Below are positions 15,328 through 64,000 of a DNA stretch of 64,000 bases, in pieces. The notes below the pieces were generated by a model. It searched no databases. It had not been told where the DNA came from and worked only from the letters and a program-made list of their open reading frames with translations. The stretch lies in the NCBI GenBank assembly GCA_973895155.1, contig OZ316893.1, forward strand, positions 6,472,963 to 6,536,962. Direction: 5' to 3'. The position numbers were made by a program, and so were the translations under genes. Every line of letters begins with the position of its first letter. Within the stretch, counting starts at the first letter, position 1. This DNA is from Marsupella aquatica. Taxonomy: Eukaryota > Plantae > Marchantiophyta.

Positions 15328-17449
15328 TCACGACACCGGTGGTGGATCCTTAATGGACGCCCCCAACGCTTCCTCCTTAGCCACTGCCGTAGGCTCATTC
15401 CCTGACAGATTACCTGCCCTTGACTGAGTCAACTCTCCATCGGCCTGACTGGGTCCACTATCGGCGTCGGCATCGGCTCGAGAATCGGTTACGGCCTCAG
15501 CCTCGGCTACGGTCTCCCCGGCCTGCTCAAGAGGCGGATCTGGAATACTGGCCTCCTTACTGAGTAGTTCGGCTTGGGCCGCACCATCCCTACCTGTGAT
15601 CATAGCAGGATCTATTACCATATTCATGTCGGAGGATGGTGTTGGTTCTACCTCTTTGGTCACCACGGCTTGTGGAGTCGGATTACTCCTTGACCCTGAA
15701 GGTTTCCGCTTTTTCTTCTTTTCTGGTTCGGCAGCTGGTCCCTTCCCCTTCCCACTTACCTCCGGCACTGGTGCAGTTGGCGCGGCTTTTTCTTCGGCCA
15801 GTACCACTCCTGGTAACTTGGTTGCCCCAATTGGAGTTGGGCCTGATGAAGACAAGCACCTAAATACTGCGGCTTGTTTCTTCAGCCGCTCCGTTTGGTT
15901 GTCGGCCCGCCGCTGGAGGTTCTCCATCTTCCTCGTGATTTCCTCCAACTCCTCCTGGGTCTCATCCAGGTCCTTGCGTGCCTCCTCTAGTTCCTTCTGG
16001 GCTTCCTCCCATTCTTGTTTCAAGGTAGTCCTCTCCTCTTGGGTTGCTTTTAGCTCCTTGTCGAGCTCTGCAATGATGACAGACTCCATCTGGTTCATCT
16101 TGGCGTAAGTCTGTTCGAGCATCTCGTCCTTCTCCCTTAGGTCGGCCTTGAAGCTGGCCGTCAGGGACGCAAGCTCCTGCTGCAGCGCCATAATCCCTTG
16201 ATAGGATTTCCCTAACTCGGCCTCCTTCTGCTCAAGGGCTCCGCGGATTTTCTCGAGCTCCCCTTTCAACGCCCATTCCTTTCTTTGGGTCTCCGCCATG
16301 GCCCGGCTGTTGGCTGTTATGTGGGCCTCCTCTGTATTCTTCAGCTCTTGCTTCCACTTCTCCCTCTCTTTGATCGTGTCGGCCAACTCTTCCTGCGTCT
16401 GAGTCAGTTTATCCTTGATATTCTGATTATCAGCCTGCGCGGTGTCCAACTGCCCCTGCATGATGTTCAGCTCATGTCGTTTAATCCGCAGTTCATCTTG
16501 GGCTTTCTTGGCCGCCCTTAGATCTTCAATCTCGGCTTCCATCCTCCTAAGCCGCCGAATGACCTCGTCCTTCTTGCTTCTCTCTAAAGCCACCGCTTCT
16601 TCTAATTGGTGCTTCTCCAACTGCTCCCTATGGAAAAAGGGTCCTACCTCCAACTCCTCTCCAAAGATGCCGAGCGCAAGTTCCCCACACATCTCACCAT
16701 ACTCCATGGCTCTATTCTTAGCGTAGGTGGAGTAAGTAGAAGTGATCGGCATCGCCCATCGCGGCCTCTGCTCCCAAGCCGTCCTGCGGATCTCTTCAAT
16801 CGTGGCTAGAGGTTTGCTTCCTTTTTTGGCTAGCCGCCTGATGTCCTCCGGCCAATCTCCTCCTGGTAAATCCTTTTCCTTAGCCAGGGTGGCCTCCTCC
16901 TCCTGCTTGATTCGCTCCTGAAATTCTTGCACCGTCTGTTTTATGCCGTCGAAGCTCGGGGGAGCAACATCTGGTGGGGGAGACTCAGGGCTACTCTGCT
17001 GGTTGAGGTCCCCTCGCACTACCCTTGGAAGTGTGGGGACAAACCGGCCACAGGTCCTTACTCCTGGAACGTGATGGTCCGACCCATAGCCGGAATTATC
17101 ATGGCTGCAGTCCTCCACTGCCTCCTCTACCTCTTGGACGTCCGGCTTCTCCCTCTCCTCTTCGTCGGTAGGAGCTTCAGGCAATTCTGCCTCAGATTCG
17201 GAGCTTGAGGTTCCCACGTACATTCGAACACCTGGCTTGGATTCCGGCCTGATTCTCTCCTTGTCTCCAGCAAAGGGGTTTTCTCTTGTGAGCCGGTGTA
17301 GGCCTACCTCTGTAGTAGTGTCCTGCATTGTTGCCGTTGCCGTTGTTGTTGCCGATGCCGATTTCTTTTCTTTCTCCAGTAGTTTCAGCAGACTCTGCAT
17401 GCCTGGTTGCTGCATCGGCAAGTCTTCCTTCCTGGGCCTAAACACCTGC
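15328..17449 (-). pseudogene. C-terminal part (acidic region plus long coiled coil) of a large TE-associated ORF split by the Gypsy insertion
   Basis: The first codons of the 714-aa ORF lie in the LTR. Removing 17450-33702 gives in-frame ...PTIEQV|FRPRKED..., joining it to the ORF at 33698-35213. Confidence 0.8.
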
Positions 17450-20400
17450 TGTAGTTTGCCATAGAGAACCAAAAATCACATTTTAAAGTCTCCAAACTCG
17501 GTATTCGTTCCCTTTAAGAACAAGATGGGGTTGGTTTGATGTAATAAACTAAAAACAAAGTTTTAAGCTCTTGTGTCACACATAGTAATCAATCTTGACT
17601 ACTTTAATCAGGTACTTTGAAGATCGCTCCACAGCGGTGAGTAGTTTTTGATGATAACTCAACATCAGATAACCTTCAATTAAGCAAAAGATTGCAATTA
17701 ACAAAACACAAGGAAAAATCTCTCAGAGTATGCTTAAGGGAGTCTGGAATAGACCAAGGTTACTCCTTAGACATAAGTAATAATGGAATGACTTAAAAGG
17801 AAATCCAAATCCACACGGCTTTTCAGATCTAAACTGCATACTAGAGTATCCTTTTAAAATGCCGGCAACATGTCTTGACCTTTCTTCCTAAGTGATACTT
17901 AGTCAAGATCTAAAAGGATAAATACTTCAGCATTTAGATGGTACTAAGCAACATGAAGGTGAAAACATCATTTCCAATGTAACTTAAACTCAATGAGTTA
18001 ACTCTAAGAACTTGTGAGATTACAATGTGTCACCAAAGCGGAATCTGACATTATAATTCACGAGATTCATAACTGAGGTTTTACTTCAAGTATTTGGGTT
18101 CCAAAATACAAGAAGGAGGTAAGTCTCTCCAAATGTTAAACCTGATCTCGAACTCATAGATTCATGATCAACTAGTTTAACACAAGGGAGAGGCAAAACT
18201 GCAAAACTTAACCATCTCTCTACACTAGGGGAAGAGGTATAAATAGTGATGAACTACAGAATAAGAGGTCACAGGGTCGAAGAGACATGCCTCTTCATAC
18301 CCCTCAAAATTTTAAAATGGCGATTCAGTAAGTGAAAAGCCGGAAAAAATGGCTAAGTATGAACTCTTAAACTCTTAAAAACTTAAACTCTTAAAAACGT
18401 AAAAACTTAAACTCTTAAACTCTTAATTTCAGTATACTAAAAATTGAGTAGATTCAACTATTTTTAACTTTCTACTCCTGGTTCAGAAAACTCTGAAATT
18501 TTTCCAGCAGGGTTTCCTAGGTACAGACTACAGCCTAAAGAAGTATGACAGCTTCTAAAGCTCTAGAACACATTTCTAAAAATCAGATAAGATGCACTAC
18601 TCTAAAAACTAACTAAGAACACTTAGAGACTTCTTCAAGCTTGCTGTCGGATGTCCTCTGGTTCTAGTAACTCCACAAGGGTAACAATTCGGTTCTGGGT
18701 AACCTCTATCAGCTTAGCTTGGCGTGGGGATCCTCTAGAGTAGGGTAGGCACCTCAGTTGTCTCTCAGGATACATCAAAGGCATTCGCTTCATCAAATAA
18801 CAGGAATCTATACGAAGAGCTTCTCTGTATATCCCTAGTACATCATAGTTGTTGCAGGTGGCAGCATATACTTGGGGATAGTGATGCAGAAACTCATCAC
18901 TATTCATCATCCTGGAATAGAAGGGTCGAAGTCTCCATCTGACATCCTTAAAATATCGGTTGAAATGAGCCAGGGTCTGAGTAGTGACATTATTCCAGAT
19001 CCTCTGTTTCTCAGCTAGGGAACTGGTGGAAACAAGGACAACCTTCGGCTCTCGTGGGATGTAAGAGTTCTGGTGAGAAGTGGATTTCTTACTCTGCATG
19101 AGAAAAGAAATCACAAAGTCCAGAGCGTAAGCTGCAAAATTCCCGAAATAGGCCAAAACCAAATCTGGATCTTCTACTTCTACATCCCCTTGAAGTAGCA
19201 TCATAGCAAGGATGGGTCGGAAGTAGATTGAGTCAGCCCAGAACTCATCAAATTGAGCCATCTCCACTCTTGAAGTTCCGAAACTTCTGAGGTCAAATAT
19301 GTAACTGGCCTCAGTCTTCTTAAGGTAGTAGTATCTCCAAAACTCTCCAATTGGGGGTCTGTTGGCCTGCATTATCTTACAAGTCTCCACGTACCTCTGC
19401 ACTTGAGACTCTGGATGTCGTGTATATCTTTTCTCAATGACAGAATACCGGGGTGTTTGAGTAGAGGAGGTGACAACTGCCACTAAATTTGGATCAGATC
19501 TTAAGGTAGTGTCAACATCCTCAAATCCTTGCCTTGGTGACGACTCGACAGAGTTGTCATAAGATCGGATGGAATCAAAATCAGAGGGTGGATCAGAATC
19601 CTCAGGAAGATCCTGTCTAACAGAAGGATGTTCATACTGTGGTTGGGTATAAATAGGTCCCTCGGTTGGCTCATAATTGGAATCTGGACTATAAATGCAG
19701 TCACCCGGGTTGGAAGGGCCTTTGAATTCTGTGTACTTCGGAATTAAGTCACTAACCACAGAGATTATCTCCTCAGGTTCACACTGAAGCAATTCCAGTA
19801 GGTCAGTTACAATTGCAACACAACTTGTGTTTCCTATCCTTGAGACAGGTTCACTTGGCTCTGGAGGTAGATTCTGTGGGACAGTAGGAGTGAGAGCAAC
19901 AAATTCTTCTGGTGCTGACCTCTCAATGGGAGAAGCGGTCCTGACAGGGGTTAGCTGATCTGGAAATGGAGAGGATAAGCTAACTGCCTCGGATCTCAAA
20001 TCACAGACAACATCGTAGAGTTCAACATCACTGCAACCGAAGAGAGAGATTAACTTATCAATAAGCTGCTGATTTGACTCTGCTTTCGAAAAAGGGGGCA
20101 TGGTGACTCCTCGTATGGCAGTAATAGTTGGTTCAACAACGACTTCTTGTTGCTCAGGAAAAATCTCGTCTCCTTCAGCTTCAAGTTGATCTGCTCCACT
20201 GATTTCTCTTGGAGAGTATAAAATGACCTCCATGTTGTGTTCAGGGGGAAATTCCGAACCATCTATCGAGACATCCTCCATATTAACATCCTGATCAGTG
20301 GAATTCAGCAGAATGTCCTGTTCTGATTCTGCTACACTAATTTCTTCCTCAATGTCCAACTCGATCAGAAGTAATCCCCTTTCTGTTTTCTCCTCCGGAT

Positions 20401-21519
20401 GTAAACAGTCATGTGCTTGATACAGCTGAGATAGATAGACTTGTAGACAAGTAGGTCTGCCTGCCTTCATACTTCTCACCTGATCGTGCATCACATTGAA
20501 AAGTAACAACGCCCAATTTACTTGAATAGCTCCACTGTGAGAAGCTACGATAGTATTCGCCAATGCCACAGGGCAGATAGTTGGTCTCTTCGGATGGAGA
20601 ATGGGCACTAGAAATTCTAAAAGAATCCTCAAATCCGGATAGGTACATTGTGTCACATTCCAGCCATTGGTAGGATGGCGAATCCCTGAAAAGTAAGGAG
20701 TGGACAAATCTTTTTTCTTTGAATATAATCCTTCTCCATCTAAGGGGCAGCGGAAGGCATGAGCTACTTGCTCAACTGTCCATAAACTTGGCCGAGCTCG
20801 AATGGTTTGTCGAAATTCAGGGGCAATCAGTGATCCTCTCACAAAATCCTGTAAATAAGAGTCGAGCTCCACATTCCAAGGGATTGCGAGTAGATGTTCC
20901 AATCCGAGCTGCTGTAACGATGTTCTCAAATTTTCACAACTGTCGGGCGCCAAAGGAATTCGAGCGACCACACTCTTAGGAATTGCCAGAGTTTGAACAC
21001 GATACTGTGCATCAGCGTTCAAGTCAGCCATAGCTCAAATTCTGCTCACTGAGCTACGCGAAGAATTGTTTGGAGTCGAGAGCGATGAAAGATGCAGCGG
21101 AAGAGAAGTCAGGAGTGAGCACCTATGTTCTGGATTCCTCCCCCTTCAAGGCCTGCTCCTCGTTTTGTTGCAAAGTCCCGTTGGAGTTAGCCGTAGCCTG
21201 TCACAATCGCGGGGCTCGCCAGTTCGCAAGTCGCAACTCTTAAAGTCGTAAAGTCTTAAAGTAGGGTTTACTCGTAAACCCTTAAACTCTTAAACTATTA
21301 AACACTTCAACTCTTCAACTCTTAAACTCTTAAACTATTAAAGTAGGGTTTACTCGTAAACCCGTAAACTCTTAAACACTTTAACTCTTCAACTCTTAAA
21401 CTCTTAATCTTCGGCAGAGTTTAGTTTACTCGAGTTATCAGCAAATATAGTTTAACTACTTCAAAAATTTAAAAATTTTCCGGTTTTCTTCATGACTTTG
21501 GAATTACTGCCTATCTACA
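17450..21519 (-). repeat. 3' LTR (4,070 bp)
   Basis: Near-identical to 29628-33697 at a constant offset of 12,178; preceded on the minus strand by the PPT. Confidence 0.97.
18635..21031 (-). CDS. 798-aa LTR-encoded accessory protein (3' LTR copy); N-terminal domain resembles plant TE accessory domains (Transposase_32/Athila extra-ORF/PMD-like)
   Basis: Intact ATG-to-TGA ORF entirely inside the LTR. Motifs GLEHLLAIPW, WTVEQVAHAF, LLEFLVPILHP, VNWALLL and YLSQLY, then an acidic/Pro-rich linker and a C-terminal globular-looking region. The domain assignment is by recognition only. Confidence 0.85.
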   Translation of the reverse strand: MADLNADAQYRVQTLAIPKSVVARIPLAPDSCENLRTSLQQLGLEHLLAIPWNVELDSYLQDFVRGSLIAPEFRQTIRARPSLWTVEQVAHAFRCPLDGEGLYSKKKDLSTPYFSGIRHPTNGWNVTQCTYPDLRILLEFLVPILHPKRPTICPVALANTIVASHSGAIQVNWALLLFNVMHDQVRSMKAGRPTCLQVYLSQLYQAHDCLHPEEKTERGLLLIELDIEEEISVAESEQDILLNSTDQDVNMEDVSIDGSEFPPEHNMEVILYSPREISGADQLEAEGDEIFPEQQEVVVEPTITAIRGVTMPPFSKAESNQQLIDKLISLFGCSDVELYDVVCDLRSEAVSLSSPFPDQLTPVRTASPIERSAPEEFVALTPTVPQNLPPEPSEPVSRIGNTSCVAIVTDLLELLQCEPEEIISVVSDLIPKYTEFKGPSNPGDCIYSPDSNYEPTEGPIYTQPQYEHPSVRQDLPEDSDPPSDFDSIRSYDNSVESSPRQGFEDVDTTLRSDPNLVAVVTSSTQTPRYSVIEKRYTRHPESQVQRYVETCKIMQANRPPIGEFWRYYYLKKTEASYIFDLRSFGTSRVEMAQFDEFWADSIYFRPILAMMLLQGDVEVEDPDLVLAYFGNFAAYALDFVISFLMQSKKSTSHQNSYIPREPKVVLVSTSSLAEKQRIWNNVTTQTLAHFNRYFKDVRWRLRPFYSRMMNSDEFLHHYPQVYAATCNNYDVLGIYREALRIDSCYLMKRMPLMYPERQLRCLPYSRGSPRQAKLIEVTQNRIVTLVELLEPEDIRQQA

Positions 21520-21522
21520 TAG

Positions 21523-21532
21523 CCCTCTCCTC
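21523..21532 (-). promoter_or_regulatory. Polypurine tract (PPT)
   Basis: GAGGAGAGGG on the minus strand, 3 nt before the 3' LTR TGTAG and 16 nt after the integrase stop codon. Confidence 0.85.
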
Positions 21533-21548
21533 AAACGGCGCCGTGCCC

Positions 21549-24500
21549 TCACAAGCCATTGGAGTGGGGTATATAATATTTCTTCACTCTGGATCCATTG
21601 ATTCTGGTATCAAGAGGTTCTCTATTCAAGGTTTCCAAAGTTAAAGACCCATTAGGCCATACGGTAACAACTCTGTAAGGGCCGATCCAGTGAGTGTGAA
21701 GCTTCCCAGGGAAGAACATATACCTAGAGTCATACACAAGCGCCAAATCTCCTGGCTGTAGTGTCGGTATTTTTAACCTCTTATCATAGGCCATCTTCCG
21801 TTTATCCTGTTGTTGTATGGTATGCTGTAACGCTAGAAGTCTATGTTCTTCTAATTCATCCAGAACTTCCAACCTAGTGTGGAAACTATCAAGTTCAGGT
21901 AACCTCTCAGAGATCAGAAGCCGTTCAGTAGGTAGTTCAAATTCAATGGGGGTAACACTATGCATACCAAAAGTTAAGTAGAAGGGCGTTCTCAAGGTAG
22001 TAATCTTTTCTGCAGTTCTGTAAGCCCATAAAGCAGAGTGGAGTTTGATGTCCCAATCCGTTTTATGTGCTTCCACCATTTTATTCAATATTTTTCCCAT
22101 TAACCCATTAGCTCTTTCAGTCAATCCGTTAGCTCGGGGATTATAAGGGGTGGTCTTTCGATGCTTAATCAGATATTTCTCAGTGATGAGCTCAATTGTC
22201 TCATTAAGGAAGTGCAGGCCTCGATCACTTACCAATTCCAAGGGACAGCCATACCGGGTAATAATGTTTTCAAATAAGAAATTGGCGGCTGTGGCAGCGT
22301 CATTCTTCCTAGTATGCTTAGCCTCCACCCATTTGGTGAGGTAGTCCGTAGCAAGAATGATATATCTGCTTCTACTTCGTCTAGCAGCAGGGGAAATGGG
22401 GCCAATAAAGTCTATCCCCCATTTCTCAAATGGAGCTAGAGGCAAAATGGGTGTTAGAGGCCATTTTGATGTTGCAGTAGGCTTCCCTATTCGCTGACAA
22501 GGGTCACAGCTTTGAATGTAGTTATAAGTGTCCTTATGCATGGTAGGCCACCAAAATCCAGCGTCCTTAATTTTCTTAACAGTTGTATTTACGGCATAGT
22601 GTCCACCGGAGGCTTCAGTGTGTAAGGCTGAAATGACCTTTGGAACTTCTTGAGCTTCCAAGCAACGGTGAAGTCTCTGATTTGGCAATAATTTAAATAG
22701 AACACCCCTCACAATAGTATATGGTCCTACTTTGTAGAGGAAAACAGCTTTTTCTTCTGCATTCAACCCTGGTGGATAAATTCCGTGAGTAAGCATCTGA
22801 ACAATGTCAAAGTACCTTGATTCTTCTCCTTCCAAATGCCATAGCTGTTCGTCCGGAAATTGATCAGACAAAGGTTCGGCACTAGGATCTCCAGGCAATC
22901 GTGATAGGAAATCTGCATTCTCATGGTGTTTCCCGGCTCGAACTTGTACCTCATAATCATATTCTTGTAAAAGAAGTACCCACCTAGCAATGCGCCCACT
23001 TAAATCTGCCTGATTCACTAGGTATTTTAAAGAAGAATGATCCGTGTGGAAAATAGTTTTATAACCCAGAAGATAGTGCCGGAACTTTTTACAAGAGAAA
23101 ATGACTGCTAAGGCCTCCCTCTCTGTGACCGTATAATTCTTTTCAGCACTATTCATTTGCCTACTGGCATAATATATAGGGTGGTCTTTCTTCTCATCAT
23201 CCAGTTGACTTAAGGCAGCGCCCACACAAAAAGTTGAGGCATCAATATACACATGAAAAGGTTTCTGCCAATCCGGTGGTTGTAGAATGGGCGCAACAGT
23301 TAGTTTGGTTTTTAAAACTTCAAAGGCTGTTTGCCTTGCTGCAGTCCATACATATGCCACGTCCTTCTTAAGGAGCTGGGTTAAAGGCATGGCAAGGTCA
23401 GCATACTTCCGTATAAATCTTCTATAATACCCCACATAGCCTAGGAAGCCTCGCAATGCCTTCAAATTTCCAGGGGGTTGTAATGCCAGAATAATTCGAA
23501 CTTTCTCTGCATCCACTTCGATTCCTCTTTGGGAGATAACATGTCCTAACAGAATACCTTCCTTCATACCAATGAAACATTTCTCAGGATGTAGACACAA
23601 CTGTGATTCCCTACAGCGTTGGAACGTTTGTCTTAAGTGATCCAGGTGTTGGGTGGCTGATCCATAAACACAAAAATCATCTATAAAGATTTCCAGGAAT
23701 TTTCTGAGAAAATCCTGAAAAATAATCATCATAATCCTTTGGAAAGTTCCAGGTGCATTACACAGGCCAAAGGGCATAACTCAAAAAGCATACGTTCCCC
23801 AATCCGTAGTGAAGGTGGTTTTGTCTCTGTCCTCCTCACGGATTGACACCCGGTTGTAGCCGGAGTATCCATCTAGGAAACTATAAAGTTCATGAAGAGC
23901 AACCATATCCAACACAAGGTCTATGAATGGTAAGGGATAGTGATCTTTTCTAGTAGCAGCATTCAGCTTCCTGAAATCTTGACATACTCGGATTTTTGGC
24001 TTCCCATCTGGTCCGGGTTTCTTTGGAACAATTACAATGGGTGAAACCCACTCACTGCTAAGGACTGGGTAAATAAAACCAGCAGCGGTCAACTTATCAA
24101 GTTCCTCTTTGACAAGCATAGAATATTTGGGGTTCAAACGATATTGTCTTTGCCTTACTGGAACTGCTCCTTCAATTAAGTCAATCCTGTGCTCTCCCAA
24201 GTGAGGTGGTATCCCTTTTAAGTCTTTATGGCTCCAGGCAAATACATCCTTATACTGAGTAAGCAAATCAATATATTTTTCCCTTAACTCTCCTTCAATA
24301 TGATTACTGATATTTAAAAATTTTCCGGGTTCGATCTCAATCTTCTGACATTTTCGGAGATCGACAATTCCATCTGTTTCGTTTGGTGAAATGTCATCCC
24401 AGGTGAGCGCCTTCCTTATATCGTGATTTCCGCCCATCCGAGTGTCTTCCTCTGCCCTCTCCTCATGTCAGGAGACTGGTGGGAGAGTCCCTTTACTTGG

Positions 24501-27500
24501 TGTGTCACCCTCGACCTCCATGATATCAAGATATCCGACTTCTAGAGATTCAAACTTGGGAGTTTTGATAAGGAGAGTAGAATCTGAGAAGTCAGAAGTG
24601 TACCCATCATCTGATTGGGTTTCGCCCATATGTGGTTCATCCATCCAACTGATAGTGACTCGGGGTGTCCCAAAGGACATCTGTCGTTGGTGCCAATCAA
24701 CCTTGACCTTGGCCTTATATAACCAGGGTCTCCCTAATAGCAAAGGATAGGAGGAGGGAACTTCAGGTCGGAGAACTACAAAATCTAAGGGGAAAGTCAG
24801 GCCCCCAATAATTGTGTCGATCCCAATAAGTTTTCCTACTGGCACTACTCTGGATTGATCGGCCATGCGTAGTACTTGTAAGGTCTTTTCAAACTTATGG
24901 ATGCCAATGTTGGATGCTGTTTCCTCGGTCATGATGTTCACACTCGATCCTCCGTCTACTGGTACTTCGGGTATTACACACCCCATGATCTGAACTTCAA
25001 TTTCCGGAGGTCCTTTATCTTCCCATTCTAGTCTCAAGGCCTCCACAGAAGGTAGTTTCCTTCTTTTCCTCCTTCCTGTCAGCAAGGTTCTTAACTGCTT
25101 TTTATAAGTGGGATTGTCTTCTAATAGCTCCCCAATCGTAATGTTGGCAGGTTGGCTCTTGACAACGTCCACGATATCATACCCCTTTGGTTTGAGTGTT
25201 GGTACCAAGGTCATCTTGGGTTCAGGCTTTTTTAGCTCTGGAGGGACTTCCTTCCGTTCCACTAGCAGGGGTGCATCCTTGGTTAACTCATGTATTTGAG
25301 TTTTAACCTCTGTAGATATGTCGGGCTGGAAGTACTTGGGGTCATACCTGTCATAGGCTGGGTCATCCTCTTTTGGGATACCTTCCTTTGCCGGTATCCT
25401 TGTTTTGCTCTTCTGTTTGGATGATTTCTTCCGCTTAGAACCATCCTCACCGTGCTTCTTCTCATGATGAGACTTGGATCTGGTAGTGGCGTAAGTTTCC
25501 AAAACACGGTCCCGTTCTTGGACCCGTAGGTTGGGCATTCCCACAACATGGTCTTGTACTAAGTGCTCCAAATCAACATCCGGAATAGTGCCTGATAGAC
25601 TTTGGGTATAAATATTATGCACTTCCTCCTCAGCTTCTGCTTCTATGGTCACATGACTGCATTGCTCCCGATTTTCTTGGCTATATATCATCCTTACTTC
25701 TTCAGGTCTGGGTGCTTCCTTCACAGGCTCTTTAGCAAATCTTACCATCATCTTGGGTTTCGGAGGGTTTGGGCATTCAACAGGGAGATGACCTTCCTTT
25801 CCACAGTTGCCACAAATTGGTGTGTACCCTACTTCTCGTTTTGGGTACGGACATTCTGGTGAGTAATGCCCTGGTTGACCACAATTATAGCAGGTTCCTT
25901 GCACTCTTGGTGCTCCTCTGGGTGGATAGCCTCCAGGAGGTCCCATCGGTGGTCTTGGTATAGGCCGATTAAATGAGGAAGGTCCTGCTGATTTTTGTTG
26001 GGCCCATGAAGTCGGTCCCGCAGCAGGGGGAAAGTATTGCCCTGCAAACGGTGCTTGGACAGCATAGATATCTCCATAGTCTAATAACTCTTCCTCTTCT
26101 CCATAATTGACAGCTCGTTGCAATGAGGGGCACTCATGGTGATAGTGTCCTTGGTTATTACAGCGTGTACACCACACATTATTTCGTATGGTGGGTGGGA
26201 GTTTCCTAGTTGGTTTAAATATAGCGGCATTCACAGAGAGTTTATTCAACTTACTAGTCAAGGAATCCATCATTTTATCCAGGGTCTTGGCTTTCTGAGG
26301 TACCGTGCTTTTCTGCATCCTTTTGGTCTTGGTGTCCGCATCGTCAGAACTTGGACTGGAGCTTGAGCTACTGCTGGAGCCCGAGTCGGAACTAGTTCCT
26401 TCAGTAGTGGTAGTGTCGCTATCACCAGACTCCGAGCTTGAAGAGGACTTTTTCTTTTTCTTTTTCTTTTTATCCTTCCTCTTACCCTTCTTCAAATCTT
26501 TTTTTACTCTTTTCTTCTCAGAAACTTCTGAGTCCATGTATTTTTGTGCTGCTTCCTGAGCTTCCTCAAAGGTTGTACCACCTTCTCGTCTTACATACCT
26601 TGCAATTCGGGAGGGCAGCCCGTTAATAAACCAATCTCTCGTGGTGGACTTGGCTGTATTGGGATTATATTTATCCACTAGATCTAGTAATTTATCTGCG
26701 TACTTTCTCACTGAGCCATGTTTCTTCATGGTTAGTTGAGAGATTCTAGCAAAAGCCCTTGCCTCAACACCATCCTCCTTATATTTGTCCAAGAAACCGG
26801 TCTTGGTTTTTCCCCAGTCATTCTTATCTGGAAATCGATCATACCATTTTTGAGCATTCTTTTTTAATAACCCTCCAAAAATCGTGGCTTTTTCAGCGTC
26901 CTGGGTTTGCCCATTTGAGGTGGCTGCAGCTTCAAATTCCTTGAGGAAAGTCTCAGCATCCTCCTTAGATGTTCCCTTAAAGGTATCGTATCAAATATTA
27001 TTTCGAGCCATTTGAGGTCGTCTTATAGGAACCGGAATTGGGTTAATTGGAGGATAGGCTCTCAGAGATTGTGAGCTAGTGCTGGTGACTGATCCTTGAG
27101 ATGTTAATGGTGAAATTGAATTTACGGAATTTGGAGTGCTTATCGCACTTAAGCTACTGCTGGCACTTCCATAACCAAGCGAGGGTAGTGCCTCTGCTAA
27201 TCTGACAGATTCATCAATAGGCGTTCTTTGAAGTAAAGGTGAGTCAGAATTAAATTTTAAAGATTCAATTTGCTGAATTCCTCCTTCAATTATGCTTTCA
27301 TGCCTTGTATTGGTAGTTTTTCCTGTTCCAATTATCTGAAACGCAGGTGTTCCCTCATATTCATCCAAGCTTTGTGTTCGTCTCAGTGGTTTGGCTATGT
27401 CAATTTCTTTCTTCTTAGGCTTAGGTGAGATGTATTGGACATCCCTAGAGCGTAATTTATAAATTGTTGGTCGACTTGTTGCAGGCTTGTCTACTGTTCC

Positions 27501-27677
27501 TTCTATTTCATTTCGTTGGATGAGGGTAACTCGCTCTACTACATTTCCCGGTGTTGGGTAATCTGGGGATTGGAATTCGGGCAATAGTCCCCTAGGATTA
27601 AGGGGAGTTGGTGGTGCTTCTGATCTTGCTTTTTCTTCTTGTCTTAATCTCCAACTTCGCTTCCCTTTATCAGACAT
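21549..27677 (-). pseudogene. gag-pol: gag-pol polyprotein (single frame, 2,043 codons) interrupted by three in-frame TGA codons
   Basis: ORFs 26991-27677, 24468-26792, 23781-24437 and 21549-23777 are in one frame. Three CCHC knuckles (CTRC, CYNC, CGNC); protease VDGGSSVNIM; RT (DGYSGYN, MPFGL, FIDD); RNase H (YIDAS, TDH); integrase HHCC, WGIDF/SDRG/TERAN and GPY. Confidence 0.95.
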
Positions 27678-28115
27678 TCCTCATCCTGAAAGTCGGCAAT
27701 CTTCAGGAGCGAGTTAATGGTTTGGGACTGACTCTGGTTTCCTTTGGGAGTCTAAGTTTGCATGGAGGGGTCGCGTTCTTCCATTGTTCCTCCCGCTGGC
27801 ACCCTTTCGCACCGTCGTGGCCCTTGATGGCGCCTCTTCTCGTAACCCTCAGGGGGTGTACGCCCCAACAGTCGCAGCGAGTGGTCAAGTGTTGAAGTGG
27901 CGCGCCTGTTCATCGCGGCCCTTCAACTCGTAAGTCGTCAACTCGCAACTCGTAAGTCGTCAACTATTATACCCTTACTCGAGTATGTTTACTCGTAAAA
28001 CTTCAACTCTAAAAAAAACGTAAAGGCTTACTCGTAATGCCGTCCCTTCAGTTCTCGGCAGCGCCCATTTTTAGGAGAGTAGGTGTACTTAACAAATTTC
28101 TTGACCTAACTAATG

Positions 28116-28367
28116 TTATCTGTGTCTCCTAGTTTGCCTTTGAAGCAAGGATCTAGCTAATTCTTGTATAGAAATGATAACATACTCCTCTCCTGTAATT
28201 CTACCATTTAACTTTAAAATAACCAGATGCAAAATGCCTCCTTCCCACCAGGTAATAGATAACCAATGAACACCCCTTCGTCCTCTTAGGGACAGTACCC
28301 ATGTTTGAACATACCGATTATGCAAATTTCTTACTCTCAAAGTGCCTAAAGACCTGATTGGAGGCAT
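28116..28367 (-). CDS. Possible small (83-aa) ORF between the upstream accessory ORF and gag
   Basis: Open frame MPPIRSLG...QTRRHR in the element's sense orientation; no recognisable motif. Confidence 0.3.
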   Translation of the reverse strand: MPPIRSLGTLRVRNLHNRYVQTWVLSLRGRRGVHWLSITWWEGGILHLVILKLNGRITGEEYVIISIQELARSLLQRQTRRHR

Positions 28368-28449
28368 TTCAATTATTTCACCAAATTGCTTATTCAAAGT
28401 TGAAATCAAGATTGTAATTTGGGGAAATCCGCTCCTCTGTTGTCCTCTT

Positions 28450-29505
28450 TTATGCTGAGGTCCGGTAGTTGTTTAACAAATTTTCTAGAGTGTCCAGGGC
28501 ATCAACCCAAGGGTGTTCAACAAGGTGTAATTTTTCCAACACCTCCTTAATTCTTAGTTCTTCTTCTTCAGTAACCCTGTTACTAATTTGCCCCTTCTTG
28601 CTTATTAAAAATTCTAAATCATGTTCTTCCTTAATGGGCTGCAACTTGTATTCCTCATCATCAATCCAAACTCTCTTAAAAACCATTACATCAGTTAATT
28701 CAAAGCAGTGAGGGAGTGGGATGGTCCACTTAAAGGATGTCCTTTGGGTAGTTGCCTCCTTCCATTTCAATGGAACCCATCCACTTCCGGCATGCCATTT
28801 ACAAGTGTCAACCAACTCTCTTCTATTGGAGGTCATAACTGGTCTTTCCTCCCTAAGTATTAAATTGGGATTATTCTGGTAAAACTCTGTTAAAACATAA
28901 TCAAGTTGGTTTCTCCACAATGGATTCCCTTTTAACTTATCCAACGTTTCCCTTAATTGATGTTCAAGTTCCTCCTCCAATACTTCCTCCTTAATGTCAT
29001 GTTCTTTTAGTAAGGGGGGAATAAAATTGGCATCAAATTCCTCATCTTGAGTGGCTTCAATCAATTCCAGTCTTCCATCTAGGGCTCTTCTGAAAACAAA
29101 TACACAATCATACAAAATATTGGTGTCCCAGGAGTCAACCTTCACCAATTCGCCACCCCAAAAGTAGCTTCCTCCTCTGATGTTGGACACCTGCCTTCTC
29201 AAAATAGTTGTTCTCTCTCTTGCAGTGGCACTGATAATCGTGTGTGTTTGATTATCCCTTGACCTAATCAAGGCTCTTTCTCTTTTCTGAGGTCTGCTTT
29301 TCCTCACCATCTCTTTCTTGGGAAGGATATTCCCCCACTAAGCCCCATTTCGTCTTTCCTTCTTGGCTTTAGCTTTTCTCTTTCTTTCCAAAATTGAGGG
29401 AGGAGTTTCACCTCCAAATCTCTCCCTAAATGCCTCTGGTGCATTTTCCATTGTGAAAGATCGAATTTGTAATGGAGGGAACTCCCACTCTCCTTGGGGT
29501 TCCAT
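28450..29505 (-). pseudogene. Accessory ORF upstream of gag (286 aa open; 351 codons with one in-frame TAG)
   Basis: The 286-aa ORF 28450-29310 extends in frame through TAG (29338-29340) to an ATG at 29505 (MEPQGEWEFPP...KRKAKAKKERR). It shows an internal two-fold repeat. Confidence 0.65.
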
Positions 29506-29600
29506 GGTCAACTTCCACCTTTCTTTTGTTTATTCCAGATTCACTGAATTAACCTCCTTTTGGCATTCACTGCCTGTACTTCAAACCATCCTTGATTTGT

Positions 29601-29618
29601 TCCCCGGCAGCGGCGCCA
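29601..29618 (-). promoter_or_regulatory. Primer binding site complementary to the tRNA-Asp 3' end
   Basis: Minus strand TGGCGCCGCTGCCGGGGA. It differs by one base from the plant tRNA-Asp(GUC) end TCCCCGGCAACGGCGCCA as I recall it. It lies 9 nt after the 5' LTR. Confidence 0.85.
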
Positions 29619-29627
29619 AAAATCTCA

Positions 29628-32600
29628 TGTAGTTTGCCATAGAGAACCAAAAATCACATTTTAAAGTCTCCAAACTCGGTATTCGTTCCCTTTAAGAACA
29701 AGATGGGGTTGGTTTGATGTAATAAACTAAAAACAAAGTTTTAAGCTCTTGTGTCACACATAGTAATCAATCTTGACTACTTTAATCAGGTACTTTGAAG
29801 ATCGCTCCACAGCGGTGAGTAGTTTTTGATGATAACTCAACATCAGATAACCTTCAATTAAGCAAAAGATTGCAATTAACAAAACACAAGGAAAAATCTC
29901 TCAGAGTATGCTTAAGGGAGTCTGGAATAGACCAAGGTTACTCCTTAGACATAAGTAATAATGGAATGACTTAAAAGGAAATCCAAATCCACACGGCTTT
30001 TCAGATCTAAACTGCATACTAGAGTATCCTTTTAAAATGCCGGCAACATGTCTTGACCTTTCTTCCTAAGTGATACTTAGTCAAGATCTAAAAGGATAAA
30101 TACTTCAGCATTTAGATGGTACTAAGCAACATGAAGGTGAAAACATCATTTCCAATGTAACTTAAACTCAATGAGTTAACTCTAAAAACTTGTGAGATTA
30201 CAATGTGTCACCAAAGCGGAATCTGACATTATAATTCACGAGATTCATAACTGAGGTTTTACTTCAAGTATTTGGGTTCCAAAATACAAGAAGGAGGTAA
30301 GTCTCTCCAAATGTTAAACCTGATCTCGAACTCATAGATTCATGATCAACTAGTTTAACACAAGGGAGAGGCAAAACTGCAAAACTTAACCATCTCTCTA
30401 CACTAGGGGAAGAGGTATAAATAGTGATGAACTACAGAATAAGAGGTCACAGGGTCGAAGAGACATGCCTCTTCATACCCCTCAAAATTTTAAAATGGCG
30501 ATTCAGTAAGTGAAAAGCCGGAAAAAATGGCTAAGTATGAACTCTTAAACTCTTAAAAACTTAAACTCTTAAAAACGTAAAAACTTAAACTCTTAAACTC
30601 TTAATTTCAGTATACTAAAAATTGAGTAGATTCAACTATTTTTAACTTTCTACTCCTGGTTCAGAAAACTCTGAAATTTTTCCAGCAGGGTTTCCTAGGT
30701 ACAGACTACAGCCTAAAGAAGTATGACAGCTTCTAAAGCTCTAGAACACATTTCTAAAAATCAGATAAGATGCACTACTCTAAAAACTAACTAAGAACAC
30801 TTAGAGACTTCTTCAAGCTTGCTGTCGGATGTCCTCTGGTTCTAGTAACTCCACAAGGGTAACAATTCGGTTCTGGGTAACCTCTATCAGCTTAGCTTGG
30901 CGTGGGGATCCTCTAGAGTAGGGTAGGCACCTCAGTTGTCTCTCAGGATACATCAAAGGCATTCGCTTCATCAAATAACAGGAATCTATACGAAGAGCTT
31001 CTCTGTATATCCCTAGTACATCATAGTTGTTGCAGGTGGCAGCATATACTTGGGGATAGTGATGCAGAAACTCATCACTATTCATCATCCTGGAATAGAA
31101 GGGTCGAAGTCTCCATCTGACATCCTTAAAATATCGGTTGAAATGAGCCAGGGTCTGAGTAGTGACATTATTCCAGATCCTCTGTTTCTCAGCTAGGGAA
31201 CTGGTGGAAACAAGGACAACCTTCGGCTCTCGTGGGATGTAAGAGTTCTGGTGAGAAGTGGATTTCTTACTCTGCATGAGAAAAGAAATCACAAAGTCCA
31301 GAGCGTAAGCTGCAAAATTCCCGAAATAGGCCAAAACCAAATCTGGATCTTCTACTTCTACATCCCCTTGAAGTAGCATCATAGCAAGGATGGGTCGGAA
31401 GTAGATTGAGTCAGCCCAGAACTCATCAAATTGAGCCATCTCCACTCTTGAAGTTCCGAAACTTCTGAGGTCAAATATGTAACTGGCCTCAGTCTTCTTA
31501 AGGTAGTAGTATCTCCAAAACTCTCCAATTGGGGGTCTGTTGGCCTGCATTATCTTACAAGTCTCCACGTACCTCTGCACTTGAGACTCTGGATGTCGTG
31601 TATATCTTTTCTCAATGACAGAATACCGGGGTGTTTGAGTAGAGGAGGTGACAACTGCCACTAAATTTGGATCAGATCTTAAGGTAGTGTCAACATCCTC
31701 AAATCCTTGCCTTGGTGACGACTCGACAGAGTTGTCATAAGATCGGATGGAATCAAAATCAGAGGGTGGATCAGAATCTTCAGGAAGATCCTGTCTAACA
31801 GAAGGATGTTCATACTGTGGTTGGGTATAAATAGGTCCCTCGGTTGGCTCATAATTGGAATCTGGACTATAAATGCAGTCACCCGGGTTGGAAGGGCCTT
31901 TGAATTCTGTGTACTTCGGAATTAAGTCACTAACCACAGAGATTATCTCCTCAGGTTCACACTGAAGCAATTCCAGTAGGTCAGTTACAATTGCAACACA
32001 ACTTGTGTTTCCTATCCTTGAGACAGGTTCACTTGGCTCTGGAGGTAGATTCTGTGGGACAGTAGGAGTGAGAGCAACAAATTCTTCTGGTGCTGACCTC
32101 TCAATGGGAGAAGCGGTCCTGACAGGGGTTAGCTGATCTGGAAATGGAGAGGATAAGCTAACTACCTCGGATCTCAAATCACAGACAACATCGTAGAGTT
32201 CAACATCACTGCAACCGAAGAGAGAGATTAACTTATCAATAAGCTGCTGATTTGACTCTGCTTTCGAAAAAGGGGGCATGGTGACTCCTCGTATGGCAGT
32301 AATAGTTGGTTCAACAACGACTTCTTGTTGCTCAGGAAAAATCTCGTCTCCTTCAGCTTCAAGTTGATCTGCTCCACTGATTTCTCTTGGAGAGTATAAA
32401 ATGACCTCCATGTTGTGTTCAGGGGGAAATTCCGAACCATCTATCGAGACATCCTCCATATTAACATCCTGATCAGTGGAATTCAGCAGAATGTCCTGTT
32501 CTGATTCTGCTACACTAATTTCTTCCTCAATGTCCAACTCGATCAGAAGTAATCCCCTTTCTGTTTTCTCCTCCGGATGTAAACAGTCATGTGCTTGATA

Positions 32601-33697
32601 CAGCTGAGATAGATAGACTTGTAGACAAGTAGGTCTGCCTGCCTTCATACTTCTCACCTGATCGTGCATCACATTGAAAAGTAACAACGCCCAATTTACT
32701 TGAATAGCTCCACTGTGAGAAGCTACGATAGTATTCGCCAATGCCACAGGGCAGATAGTTGGTCTCTTCGGATGGAGAATGGGCACTAGAAATTCTAAAA
32801 GAATCCTCAAATCCGGATAGGTACATTGTGTCACATTCCAGCCATTGGTAGGATGGCGAATCCCTGAAAAGTAAGGAGTGGACAAATCTTTTTTCTTTGA
32901 ATATAATCCTTCTCCATCTAAGGGGCAGCGGAAGGCATGAGCTACTTGCTCAACTGTCCATAAACTTGGCCGAGCTCGAATGGTTTGTCGAAATTCAGGG
33001 GCAATCAGTGATCCTCTCACAAAATCCTGTAAATAAGAGTCGAGCTCCACATTCCAAGGGATTGCGAGTAGATGTTCCAATCCGAGCTGCTGTAACGATG
33101 TTCTCAAATTTTCACAACTGTCGGGCGCCAAAGGAATTCGAGTGACCACACTCTTAGGAATTGCCAGAGTTTGAACACGATACTGTGCATCAGCGTTCAA
33201 GTCAGCCATAGCTCAAATTCTGCTCACTGAGCTACGCGAAGAATTGTTTGGAGTCGAGAGCGATGAAAGATGCAGCGGAAGAGAAGTCAGGAGTGAGCGC
33301 CTATGTTCTGGATTCCTCCCCCTTCAAGGCCTGCTCCTCGTTTTGTTGCAAAGTCCCGTTGGAGTTAGCCGTAGCCTGTCACAATCGCGGGGCTCGCCAG
33401 TTCGCAAGTCGCAACTCTTAAAGTCGTAAAGTCTTAAAGTAGGGTTTACTCGTAAACCCTTAAACTCTTAAACTATTAAACACTTCAACTCTTCAACTCT
33501 TAAACTCTTAAACTATTAAAGTAGGGTTTACTCGTAAACCCGTAAACTCTTAAACACTTTAACTCTTCAACTCTTAAACTCTTAATCTTCGGCAGAGTTT
33601 AGTTTACTCGAGTTATCAGCAAATATAGTTTAACTACTTCAAAAATTTAAAAATTTTCCGGTTTTCTTCATGACTTTGGAATTACTGCCTATCTACA
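29628..33697 (-). repeat. 5' LTR (4,070 bp)
   Basis: Copy of 17450-21519; followed on the minus strand by the PBS. Confidence 0.97.
30813..33209 (-). CDS. 798-aa LTR-encoded accessory protein (5' LTR copy)
   Basis: Same as 18635-21031 except VVARIP/VVTRIP and SEAVSL/SEVVSL. Confidence 0.85.
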   Translation of the reverse strand: MADLNADAQYRVQTLAIPKSVVTRIPLAPDSCENLRTSLQQLGLEHLLAIPWNVELDSYLQDFVRGSLIAPEFRQTIRARPSLWTVEQVAHAFRCPLDGEGLYSKKKDLSTPYFSGIRHPTNGWNVTQCTYPDLRILLEFLVPILHPKRPTICPVALANTIVASHSGAIQVNWALLLFNVMHDQVRSMKAGRPTCLQVYLSQLYQAHDCLHPEEKTERGLLLIELDIEEEISVAESEQDILLNSTDQDVNMEDVSIDGSEFPPEHNMEVILYSPREISGADQLEAEGDEIFPEQQEVVVEPTITAIRGVTMPPFSKAESNQQLIDKLISLFGCSDVELYDVVCDLRSEVVSLSSPFPDQLTPVRTASPIERSAPEEFVALTPTVPQNLPPEPSEPVSRIGNTSCVAIVTDLLELLQCEPEEIISVVSDLIPKYTEFKGPSNPGDCIYSPDSNYEPTEGPIYTQPQYEHPSVRQDLPEDSDPPSDFDSIRSYDNSVESSPRQGFEDVDTTLRSDPNLVAVVTSSTQTPRYSVIEKRYTRHPESQVQRYVETCKIMQANRPPIGEFWRYYYLKKTEASYIFDLRSFGTSRVEMAQFDEFWADSIYFRPILAMMLLQGDVEVEDPDLVLAYFGNFAAYALDFVISFLMQSKKSTSHQNSYIPREPKVVLVSTSSLAEKQRIWNNVTTQTLAHFNRYFKDVRWRLRPFYSRMMNSDEFLHHYPQVYAATCNNYDVLGIYREALRIDSCYLMKRMPLMYPERQLRCLPYSRGSPRQAKLIEVTQNRIVTLVELLEPEDIRQQA

Positions 33698-35213
33698 CCT
33701 GCTCGATCGTAGGACTAACAGGTGGTAGAGGCTTCTCAGCCAACGGCCTCGGCGTTGGAGCTTCCTCGGGTGCCCTTACCTGCAGGGGAAGTACCGGGGC
33801 AAAAGTCTGACCTCTGGCATACCGGCACAACTGCGGCATGTGATAGCCCAGCCGCGACACGCTCCCCATGCCGATTACCTGCTGCTCCTCCTTTAAGATC
33901 TTCTTCAATTGGTTGAGGAGGTACCCGTTGTAGTCCCGACTTGGGTCTGGCCTTTCTGCCAGATAGACCTGTGCCTTGTCGATCTCTGCCCTCGGCAAGT
34001 TACAATGCATGGTCACCCGCAAGAAGTCGATCATCTCTCCTATGTGCGGGTTGGTGCAGGTGTTCCGGAAGAAGCCATTCTTCGTTGATGGCCCGGGGAA
34101 CGACCGGAACTCCTTGTCAGGCAAGGTCTTCCTGGTATCAACTTTGGTCTTATTGCCTATCGGCAGGCCAAACACTTCGGCAATTACCTTGGGAGTAAGA
34201 TAGAAATGCTTCCCATATATCCTCGTGCAATTGGTCTCGGGTTCCCATGACCCCACGAATTCTAATAGGTCTGACTCCGGTACCTCCGGCTTCAGCCATG
34301 GTAATCTTACAAAGGCCTCCAAGCCGGATCCGGCCATGAAGCCTTGGTACTTCTTGGTCTGCATGGCCGTAAAGCATGCATCCTCCTCCCGTGCAAAATG
34401 TAGTTGCACCTCCACCGGTAGGGTTGCCGCCCAGCCCTTCCAGGTGTCATCCCTGGTTGGAATGGCCTTGATGGGATCGACCTCCTCCTCTTCGGCTTCT
34501 CCCTGCCTCCTGCTCTGCTGCTCGGCTGGCTTCTTTGGTGCCGCCAACCTTGTTCTTTTTGCCGGGGTGGCTTCATCGTTGATGGCTCCCTTCCTCTTCA
34601 TCTCTGCTGCCGTGGAGGTTTCTCCTAGCACCGTTGCCTGGGTCCACCTTTCCGTGCTACCCTTTAATTCCCAGTGTATGTCGTTGCAGTTCTTGATGGC
34701 CTCTCGGATGCCGACGACGCTGTCTTTGCAAAACAGAAGATCGTCGAGTTGATTGGAAGTAGGCGTCCACAGGAACTCGTCCTTGATGAGTTCGCCTCCT
34801 AAGAAAGCCGTCTTCTGCAGCTCCCACAATCGAGCGAGCTCCTACCGTTCTCGAGCTGCCCTTTCTGATTCCTCGTCCTCGTAAGTCTTGATGTACTCAG
34901 TTGCCCGTTCGAACAGGCATCCCCAGAAATGTGCCGCTTGATTGACGTTGCTCATACCCTCCTTAGGTCGATTGTCGGTATCTACTCTCTCCCCGAGTGC
35001 TTGCCTAAGCAGCTGACAGTAGTTGGCCTCCCGTAGTCGTCTGCCTAGTTCGTGCTCGCAAATGAGCCACCATCTCCTGCAAGCGCTCCTTACCCCTCTC
35101 CTCTGCCGGTCCTTCTTCCCGTTGATCCTTCCTAGCCGCCGACGCTTAACGCGCCCTAACCCTAATCGGGTTTTCACCCTCAGCCTTACCTCCGGCCTCG
35201 GCCCGGGTTCCAT
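33698..35213 (-). pseudogene. N-terminal part of the split large TE-associated ORF (Transposase_32/PMD-like domain)
   Basis: ORFs 34842-35213 and 33693-34829 are in one frame, separated by one TAG (34842-34844). Motifs GLEAFVRLPW, LLEFVGSW and IYGKHFYLTPKVIAEVFGLP. Confidence 0.75.
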
Positions 35214-40493: not shown

Positions 40494-40639
40494 GTGGAGA
40501 GACTGAAGCGACAAGTTGTGGAGTTACGGGGTCAGGTTGGGCTCCTTGAGACCAGGGCCAAGAGAAACAACATGTTGAGGTTGGGGAAGAGGAAAAGCCC
40601 ATCCTCACCTAGCCCTACTCTCCCCCCTAACTGACTTGG

Positions 40640-50615: not shown

Positions 50616-50699
50616 AAGAACCCAAGAGATATGAAGATTAAAATACTCAATAGTCATTCCAGACACCGGTCATAATTGTAGAGTCATTGATATAGTTGA

Positions 50700-63874: not shown

Positions 63875-64000
63875 GTAAGACTCCATACTACTACAATGAA
63901 TTTCTGCAATCTCTTCATATGACTTTGAAATGTGTTTACTTCTTGTAGCCCAGATTTTGTAATTGTTGTATTCAGTGCCCTAATTTCTGAATTGTGTGTC

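Follow-up and report, generated by a model that had tools for sequence, protein, structure and literature searches.

How does a protein-coding gene come to lie within the long terminal repeats (LTRs) of a plant retrotransposon, and what could it do there? The question is raised by a Ty3/gypsy element in a 64,000-nucleotide stretch of the liverwort Marsupella aquatica (GenBank assembly GCA_973895155.1, contig OZ316893.1, positions 6,472,963 to 6,536,962), hereafter the window, where both 4-kb LTRs carry an intact open reading frame (ORF) of 798 codons. The reading favoured here, held at a probability of roughly 0.5, is that a shift of the polypurine tract (PPT) brought a formerly internal accessory gene into the LTR and that this gene encodes a DNA-binding anti-silencing protein of the VANC/plant mobile domain (PMD) type.

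An Accessory Gene Within Both LTRs

Self-comparison of the window returns a single direct repeat of 4,070 bp, gap-free and with 5 mismatches, both copies of which start with TG and end with CA and are flanked on either side by the 5-bp target site duplication (TSD) CCTGC. The retrotransposon thus delimited lies on the minus strand (33697-17450) and measures 16,248 bp. The five sites at which the LTRs differ are all transitions, so that the repeat cannot be one read duplicated, and the 4-kb LTR form is real for this insertion, given the TSD together with the TG/CA ends. The features that define the element are as follows.

29628..33697, minus strand: 5' LTR, 4,070 bp, TG...CA, 99.88% identical to 17450-21519
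17450..21519, minus strand: 3' LTR, 4,070 bp, TG...CA
33698..33702, no strand: right TSD, CCTGC, from self-comparison
17445..17449, no strand: left TSD, CCTGC, from self-comparison
30813..33209, minus strand: 798-aa accessory ORF, 5' LTR copy, uninterrupted, same sense as gag-pol
18635..21031, minus strand: 798-aa accessory ORF, 3' LTR copy, uninterrupted, same sense as gag-pol
21520..21535, minus strand: PPT in use, a purine tract (21532-21523) followed by CTA and then by the LTR's TG
29601..29618, minus strand: primer binding site (PBS) TGGCGCCGCTGCCGGGGA, 18 nt, 9 nt past the 5' LTR end

The first-pass annotation, made from the letters alone, had claimed that the same intact ORF stands in sense orientation in both LTRs, that it begins 488 nt inside them and fills about 59% of their length, and that it lies beyond a PPT placed right after the integrase stop. 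All of this holds: the ORFs run from 33209 to 30813 and from 21031 to 18635, their ATG is 488 nt into the LTR, they take up 2,397 of its 4,070 nt (59%), and the purine tract in use lies 16 nt 3' of the integrase stop (which ends at 21549) and 3 nt 5' of the LTR's TG. The two ORF copies differ by two missense changes and a silent one. That the gene is borne by the LTRs of this element is certain.

Conservation of the Accessory Protein

The predicted protein comprises an N-domain (about aa 10-220), an acidic linker (pI 4.05, 64 aspartates and glutamates in 319 aa), in which a pair of helical motifs occupies about aa 323-345 and 408-430, and a C-domain (about aa 535-798). Both motifs were found as previously quoted and both recur in protein P0001 (808 aa), which is 71% identical over the full length and belongs to a cluster of 5 members, 3 of them full length. 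Identity to P0001 reaches 84% over aa 1-215, 84% over aa 541-650 and 74% over aa 651-798, as against 44-60% for the blocks of the linker, except the first helical motif (80%). With the 798-aa protein as a query, phmmer retrieved 305 proteins at E<=1e-3; this number and the full-length homolog at 71% identity mean that the ORF is not a chance one. Among the best 150 of these 305 matches, 135 concern the N-domain, 14 the C-domain and a single one the whole protein, and domain profiles place the N-domain in 141 and the C-domain in 30 of 166 collected proteins, with both domains present in 5. One of these five, P0066, has kept the N-domain, the helical motif and the C-domain with some 25% identity. 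Shorter proteins bearing the C-domain were recovered by phmmer and by the profile search, but not by a word-seeded one. Judged from sequence, this conservation argues for selection on the accessory protein.

Sequencing runs holding related copies (X1 to X6) give further indications. Over ORF positions 19300-21031, none of 3 runs shows a substitution or indel at half of the contig depth or more, and the frame is kept in a relative that has a single helical motif in place of two (net loss of 252 nt; X1, X2, X3 and X4). The presence of two motifs is read from inspection, from a pattern defined post hoc (13 of the 166 collected proteins) and from this one-motif relative, BLASTP of the protein against itself having found no internal repeat. 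Regarding known families, the 798-aa protein has no Pfam match to PF20167, PF03078 or PF10536 at the curated cut-off; one of the 87 members of the N-domain alignment matches PF20167 (E 0.005), PF10536 is matched neither by the protein nor by its 86 aligned homologs, and a search of IMG/VR found no relative. With regard to the transmembrane helix of env-like ORFs, the hydropathy maximum (1.53 in a 19-residue window, at aa 624) falls within the predicted helical C-domain.

A Probable Move from Internal Gene to LTR Gene

A metagenome scan for relatives returned 2 loci out of 106 candidate stretches. One of them, L002, is a metagenomic contig of 10,852 nt whose overlapping ends mark it as a collapsed element, with a pol 65% identical at the amino acid level to that of the Marsupella element. 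Its order is pol, a PPT-like tract ending GCTA then GG, a 451-nt spacer, a 742-aa ORF, a second tract ending GCTA then TG, and a 991-bp LTR ending CA, with the same PBS (an identical 23-mer). The 742-aa ORF product is 38% identical to the 798-aa protein over the N-domain and has one helical motif and a different C-terminus. In the Marsupella element, it is the first tract that ends GCTA then TG and forms the LTR boundary, the spacer being 488 nt long, and a shortened tract followed by TATG stands 338 nt 3' of the ORF stop, 848 bp from the LTR end. This shortened tract and an ORF of the older element hosting the insertion are located as follows.

30474..30487, minus strand: likely remnant of a downstream PPT and attachment (att) site in the 5' LTR, 338 nt beyond the ORF stop; were it in use, the LTR would be 848 bp long
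18296..18309, minus strand: same remnant PPT in the 3' LTR, by pattern match
34601-33698 + 17444-15328, minus strand: interrupted host ORF of the older element, a distant N-domain homolog ending just before a PPT-like tract

Across the two strands of the window, the pattern of PPT plus TG matches only the PPT in use and one remnant per LTR, and in L002 it matches the second PPT only; when the LTR tail (1,185 nt) was shuffled 2,000 times, 5 shuffles also matched, a figure that is optimistic since the pattern was written after the sites had been seen. Relatives in run X1 match exactly from the remnant onward (loose end at 18309). The host ORF, whose N-domain homology is detected at a domain E of 1.8e-5, is open for 1,086 codons save for the insertion and has a coiled-coil C-half. 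Two outgroups, namely L002 and the homolog of the host element, together with the remnant PPT, point to an internal gene position as ancestral.

The ancestor would have been L002-like, that is pol, a first PPT, a promoter spacer of about 450-490 nt, the ORF, a second PPT and an LTR of about 0.85-1 kb. Shrinkage of the second PPT and gain of a TG behind the first would have extended the LTR by 3.2 kb, plus-strand priming being shifted from the PPT behind the gene to the PPT before it. The genomic RNA would be unchanged if transcription still started within the last 850 bp of the LTR, and the cassette would thenceforth be copied twice per replication round and retained in solo LTRs. In Sireviruses, spare upstream PPTs are normally without the att TG and lose the competition; an extra PPT is also cited for Athila4 and Calypso (PMC2829016). 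Here, with the downstream tract shortened and the upstream tract followed by TG, both obstacles to the use of the upstream PPT appear removed. On these sequence comparisons, a PPT shift probably carried the gene cassette into the LTR.

The idea of a PPT/att shift, already put forward in the first-pass annotation, is thus supported by the two-PPT layout of L002, by the remnant tract and by the host homolog ending before a PPT-like tract. The same annotation had reasoned that relatives with short LTRs would tell against it by exposing the 4-kb repeat as a one-off rearrangement. Such a relative does exist in L002; the rearrangement, for its part, was not borne out, since the TG/CA ends and the TSD mean that the 4-kb form has passed through reverse transcription and integration, which makes of L002 the ancestral state instead.

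Predicted Folds and Motif Arrays

The comparison of predicted folds that had been proposed for the two terminal domains gave a modest match for one and none for the other. The AlphaFold2 model of the N-domain has a predicted local distance difference test score (pLDDT) of 94, from an alignment of 87 sequences. Foldseek ranked DNA-bound VANC21 first, weakly (E 0.4, template modelling score 0.44), and VIA re-alignment to VANC21 gave a Z of 6.9, the root mean square deviation (rmsd) being 4.0 over 192 residues. In a search independent of Foldseek across 48,161 solved chains, VANC21 was the sole chain with Z>=5 (Z 7.1, rmsd 4.2, 199 residues aligned), the next-best reaching Z 4.2 over 56 residues. 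Language-model (Atlas) features put the N-domain near the PF20167/PF03078 clusters (0.91), which is a lead only, and its alignment profile retrieved among PDB sequences only coiled-coil or low-complexity matches stemming from the tails of homologs. At the sequence level, neither Pfam nor the PDB gave a match to DUF1985/VANC. For the C-domain (pLDDT 84), Foldseek found no match at E<=0.001 in the PDB and BFVD, none of the 48,161 chains reached Z>=5 (best 3.8) and all Atlas matches were below 0.9. The C-domain is conserved and, as modelled, resembles nothing known in the structures compared, a new fold being not thereby proven.

VANCs bind short, family-specific motifs in non-coding tandem arrays of their own transposon (PMC5735166), and VANC and PMD/MAIN domains are reported to be structural homologs (PMC13547354; bioRxiv 2024.09.27.615353). 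Three motif arrays were delineated in the Marsupella element, two of them present in both LTRs.

33412..33585 (copy 21234-21407), minus strand: AAGAGTT/TTACGAG array, 8-bp period with an 82-bp higher repeat, upstream of the ORF
30540..30604 (copy 18362-18426), minus strand: second AAGAGTT array, downstream of the ORF
27923..28035, minus strand: ACGAGT array, upstream of gag

The motif AAGAGTT occurs 15 times in the element, 14 of them in the two non-coding LTR arrays (shuffle mean 2.3, maximum 7), and once in L002. Conversely, AGCGCTA occurs 11 times in L002, in four clusters (shuffle mean 0.1, maximum 2), two of which lie within coding sequence, and is absent from the Marsupella element. The two relatives carry different short-motif arrays, in the manner of VANC targets. 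Neighbouring elements carry still other arrays, and CCCTATGCAG motifs cluster upstream of the accessory ORF of the host element.

Following the VANC model, the N-domain would bind the AAGAGTT/ACGAGT arrays, the helical motif and the acidic linker would oligomerise or recruit, and the C-domain would act as an effector that reduces, in trans, the DNA methylation of family members or other repressive marks they bear. The anti-silencing role deemed plausible in the first-pass annotation thus gains a lead from structure, VANC21, and another from the element-specific arrays. That the protein is such a sequence-specific anti-silencing factor, as its N-domain model and the arrays suggest, has close to even odds, on the lower side. 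More far-reaching is the proposal that a plant LTR lineage runs VANC-type anti-silencing with family-specific arrays and that in this family a PPT shift packed promoter, arrays and gene together within the LTR; taken as a whole, this proposal is doubtful. If true, each solo LTR would be a self-contained anti-silencing cassette, outliving deletion of the element and keeping relatives active in trans.

Spread of the 4-kb Form in Sequencing Runs

The 4-kb LTR was recovered with 75-83% of the words sampled in 5 runs from 3 studies (one may be the source of the window), and with 35% of them, in short pieces only, in run X6. Runs X1-X5 were compared by the depth of contigs carrying the ORF and of contigs of the internal region, bearing in mind that depth is not copy number. 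The values suggest two ORFs per element in X2 (ORF about 291, internal 98-198) and X3 (1,417-1,804 vs. 364-1,085), and do so weakly in X1 (1,238-1,271 vs. 846-1,018, longest contigs) and X4 (2,543-3,308 vs. 2,017-3,685). Run X5 is contrary (58-63 vs. 91-117), the pol contigs there being those of a sister subfamily. In this subfamily (compared over window 21616-22560), pol is about 98.6% alike and the match stops at the integrase tail, which suggests that the block formed by PPT, LTR and accessory gene was swapped or quickly turned over.

Over window 17420-19450, the C-domain and the last 1.2 kb of the LTR are 5-10 times deeper in X1 and X2 than the N-domain or the internal region, so abundant relatives share this end only. 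Besides, X2 and X5 hold a deletion derivative without gag and protease, with joints from 25952 to 29595 and from 23777 to 25921 and at a depth of 90 (X2) and 30 (X5), which is likely non-autonomous.

Points Against and Alternative Explanations

Several results weigh against the favoured reading. As to the structure of the family, the ratio expected from two ORFs per element is not clean in contig depth across X1-X5; L002 is one collapsed assembly, whose LTR ends are inferred from motifs rather than from flanks; and blastn yields no alignment between the remnant PPT region and the L002 LTR. As to the gene, a copy of such youth would often have its ORF intact by chance (P about 0.39 for each copy, from the stop rate of gag-pol), and the five variants listed for the ORF, 3 silent and 2 missense, are uninformative on the ratio of nonsynonymous to synonymous changes. 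As to the fold, the match to VANC21 is modest, with an identity of 7-11% and the Foldseek E given above, and a Z below 8 can reflect a common arrangement according to the note of the tool; a shared fold is no proof of function, and cellular PMD proteins have the same one (bioRxiv 2024.09.27.615353). As to silencing, among 11 chosen sites where X2 has almost wholly another letter, 9 are of C-to-T type, and 5 of these 9 fall in CG, as compared with 10% of internal cytosines. Such CG-biased, methylation-like decay implies that this lineage, its intact gene notwithstanding, did not stay free of methylation. Last, Sirevirus motif arrays before extra ORFs have been interpreted as cis-regulatory boxes (PMC2829016).

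Among the alternatives, the one that survives best, though it stays a tentative proposition, accepts a functional gene and sees its LTR location as a neutral accident of PPT turnover, the doubled dose and the solo-LTR copies bringing no advantage. The homologs of L002 and of the host element sit outside the LTR, few base changes suffice for the shift, longer LTRs have a replication cost, and the divergence of the X5 sister subfamily at the integrase tail implies that 3' ends do turn over. An accident without benefit agrees less well with the recovery of the 4-kb form in several runs and studies, allowing for the one that may be the source of the window, or with the excess depth of relatives sharing the C-domain and the LTR end.

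A second alternative keeps the PPT shift as the origin and changes the role: the protein would be a transactivator or a chromatin tether (Tat/Tas-like, or a helper of integration or nuclear import), and the arrays would be its own sites or those of a host factor. PMD proteins of the same fold bind promoter motifs and oppose Polycomb (bioRxiv 2024.09.27.615353), regulatory roles have been proposed for extra ORFs (PMC7264820), the linker is strongly acidic, the arrays stand upstream of the ORF and of gag like Sirevirus boxes, and the CG-biased decay of this copy would fit as well. Such a role is nonetheless somewhat unlikely, as the sole solved structural match is an anti-silencing protein and the turnover of motifs between related elements agrees with VANC-type coevolution.

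Less probable still, and by some way, is a very long R region, in which one promoter near the LTR start would give both the accessory mRNA and a read-through genomic RNA. The first 488 nt of the LTR do contain a motif array as well as a pyrimidine-rich stretch right before the ORF's ATG, and neither TATAAA nor AATAAA, in their canonical forms, is present on the LTR sense strand. The TATA-like TATTTATA at LTR position 3,275, directly behind the remnant PPT, sits however where the promoter of the ancestral short LTR would be, and translation of gag from an ORF-first RNA would presumably require splicing. Finally, a one-off rearrangement or an assembly artefact, e.g. unequal recombination of short-LTR copies, can draw on the existence of short-LTR relatives and on a depth that is not a clean 2:1 in every run, yet is very hard to reconcile with a repeat that starts exactly at the TG behind the PPT and has its CA end before the PBS, with copies separated by 5 transitions, and with a flanking 5-bp TSD that is perfect and lies in a host ORF which, the insertion apart, is open over 1,086 codons.

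Internal Region and Classification

The order of Pfam domains (zf-CCHC, aspartyl protease, RVT_1, RT_RNaseH, Integrase_H2C2, rve) is that of a Ty3/gypsy element, GAG-PR-RT-RH-INT (gag, protease, reverse transcriptase, RNase H, integrase). No Pfam match to a chromodomain was found (E<=0.1), the frame closing right behind the integrase C-terminus, and none to the Tat-defining second RNase H (aRH) in any gag-pol ORF. The gag-pol region is a single frame of 2,042 codons interrupted by 3 stops, and a further ORF precedes it. The first-pass annotation mentions neither these stops nor that ORF, nor the nesting of the element in a homologous ORF of another one.

24468..27677, minus strand: gag-protease frame, with a private premature stop at 26993-26991, terminating at the family-wide stop 24470-24468
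21549..24467, minus strand: reverse transcriptase-RNase H-integrase in the same frame, with a private premature stop at 23783-23781
28450..29310, minus strand: 286-aa extra ORF lying after the PBS and before gag, without Pfam match

The stops at 26993 and 23783 are private to this copy, with a sense codon in nearly all contig depth (X1, X5 and X2; also X2, X3 and X4). The stop at 24470, at the junction of protease and reverse transcriptase, is covered and variant-free, and L002 likewise has a stop there; a GAG-PROT:s:RT organisation with one such stop is listed in REXdb for Retand and Ogre (PMC6317226). Recoding or RNA editing was considered for the three in-frame stops and rejected, two of them being private and the family-wide one corresponding to this known layout. 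A 12-mer identical to the PPT in use lies within 3 nt after the family-wide stop (24470-24454, minus strand) and may serve as a central PPT or as a recoding signal. The 286-aa ORF has no counterpart in L002 and is skipped by a joint in X2 (28229 to 29598). All in all, this copy is very young but broken.

According to the REXdb tables (PMC6317226), features shared with the OTA/Athila lineage include the GAG-PR-RT-RH-INT order without chromodomain or aRH match, the 5-bp TSD, the large size, a PBS not of the Met type, and a sense extra ORF after pol (798 aa here), a category that includes ATHILA ORF-1 (PF03078). Differences from Athila are that the extra ORF lies here beyond the PPT and wholly within both LTRs, that a second extra ORF stands 5' of gag, and that there is a single stop between protease and reverse transcriptase, as listed for Retand/Ogre. 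The Phygy and Selgy lineages, which are short, lack extra ORFs and have a 4-bp TSD, are not matched by an element of 16.2 kb with 2 extra ORFs and a 5-bp TSD. The element is thus best described as Athila-like, its features fitting Athila better than Tat, Phygy or Selgy as judged by these tables and not by tree placement. The PBS search of REXdb permitted an offset of 0-5 nt from the LTR (PMC6317226), which is exceeded both here (9 nt from the CA, window 29627-29601) and in L002 (11 nt, 7565-7593). The PBS TGGCGCCGCTGCCGGGGA is putatively of the tRNA-Asp type, as for Athila. The type of the element, along with a CACTA transposase nearby, points to a plant host, tentatively a non-seed one in view of Marchantia proteins.

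Relation to Known Systems

In retroviruses, mouse mammary tumour virus (MMTV) sag and human immunodeficiency virus (HIV) nef are protein-coding sequences lying within or overlapping the LTR, hence present at both ends. The placement is here of the sag type, the ORF lying entirely between the PPT and the PBS-side end of the LTR (whether labelled U3 or R); the carrier is a plant Ty3/gypsy element, the 2.4-kb ORF makes up 59% of a 4-kb LTR, and the protein is unrelated. In plants, extra ORFs are described in two places, either 5' of gag or in the interval from pol to the 3' LTR (PMC7264820). Ogre and Retrosat2/RIRE3 have, as here, LTRs of 3-6.5 kb and extra ORFs without assigned function, but in the descriptions consulted their LTRs are handled as non-coding and their extra ORFs are 5' of gag-pol or internal (PMC6431247; PMC3485330). 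Sireviruses and Athila4/Calypso show spare PPTs behind pol and ahead of the 3' LTR, as well as repeated motifs in the LTR or upstream of the extra ORF; the upstream PPTs of Sireviruses lack the att TG and do not form the LTR boundary, contrary to the upstream PPT here (PMC2829016). A work on fungal LTR U3 diversity describes, in the text consulted, no LTR ORF (PMC10787394).

The best structural match across the N-domain (Z 6.9-7.1) is with VANC21/VANC6 of the VANDAL (Mutator-like) DNA transposons (PMC5735166; PDB 9LNJ, 9LNK), with which the protein also shares conserved domains around a variable, internally repeated middle, and the element shares short, element-specific motifs arranged as tandem arrays in non-coding sequence (PMC5735166). 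It differs in its carrier, an LTR retrotransposon instead of a VANDAL, in the low identity already mentioned, in its additional, unmatched C-domain, and in that its function is predicted only. Plant mobile domain proteins (PMD-A of Ogre, PMD-C of MAIN/MAIL1) are reported to be structural homologs of the VANC DUF1985 domain and some are encoded by retrotransposons; the 798-aa protein differs from them by the lack of a PF10536 match, and the PMD ORFs of Ogre are mostly antisense 3' ORFs (REXdb, PMC6317226).

A literature search, with several key sources outside its reach, came upon no plant retrotransposon whose LTR contains an entire gene. Within this scope, the single components are known and their combination is not. 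The 5'F/3'F extra ORFs counted in REXdb (Tekay 33/18%, TatII 23/26%; PMC6317226) could conceal LTR-borne ORFs, which would reduce the novelty.

The role of the extra ORFs of Athila, Tat and Ogre is a long-standing question (PMC7264820; PMC6317226), and within the literature searched sequence-specific anti-silencing has been demonstrated for VANDAL DNA transposons only. The Marsupella element supplies a candidate VANC-like protein and candidate target motifs, with L002 and its other motifs as a specificity control. L002 as a natural before-state and the remnant PPT would moreover document an LTR boundary jumping 3 kb and engulfing a gene. Solo-LTR formation being the usual route by which hosts shed elements, the accessory gene would stay intact through it, and pipelines assuming non-coding, neutral LTRs would overlook the gene and could misdate such elements.

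Neighbourhood of the Element

None of 20 short contigs of bacterial assemblies with an Athila-type PBS pattern (L003-L022) codes for a relative of the six query proteins, and their occurrence in these assemblies is probably plant contamination. Within the window, 37661-49800 (plus strand) holds decayed related gypsy elements, with a pol 44-59% identical in pieces, an orphan 270-aa ORF at 37661-38473 (plus strand), and, at 39-40.5 kb, a near-palindromic GATAAATTTATC array having a tandem repeat of 71 bp. A tandem array with a period of about 580 bp and repeats about 85% alike occupies 50690-54415, and a region of short-period repeats 10330-11870. A CACTA/En-Spm transposase (Transposase_21 and Transpos_assoc) is encoded at 61991-63922 on the plus strand.

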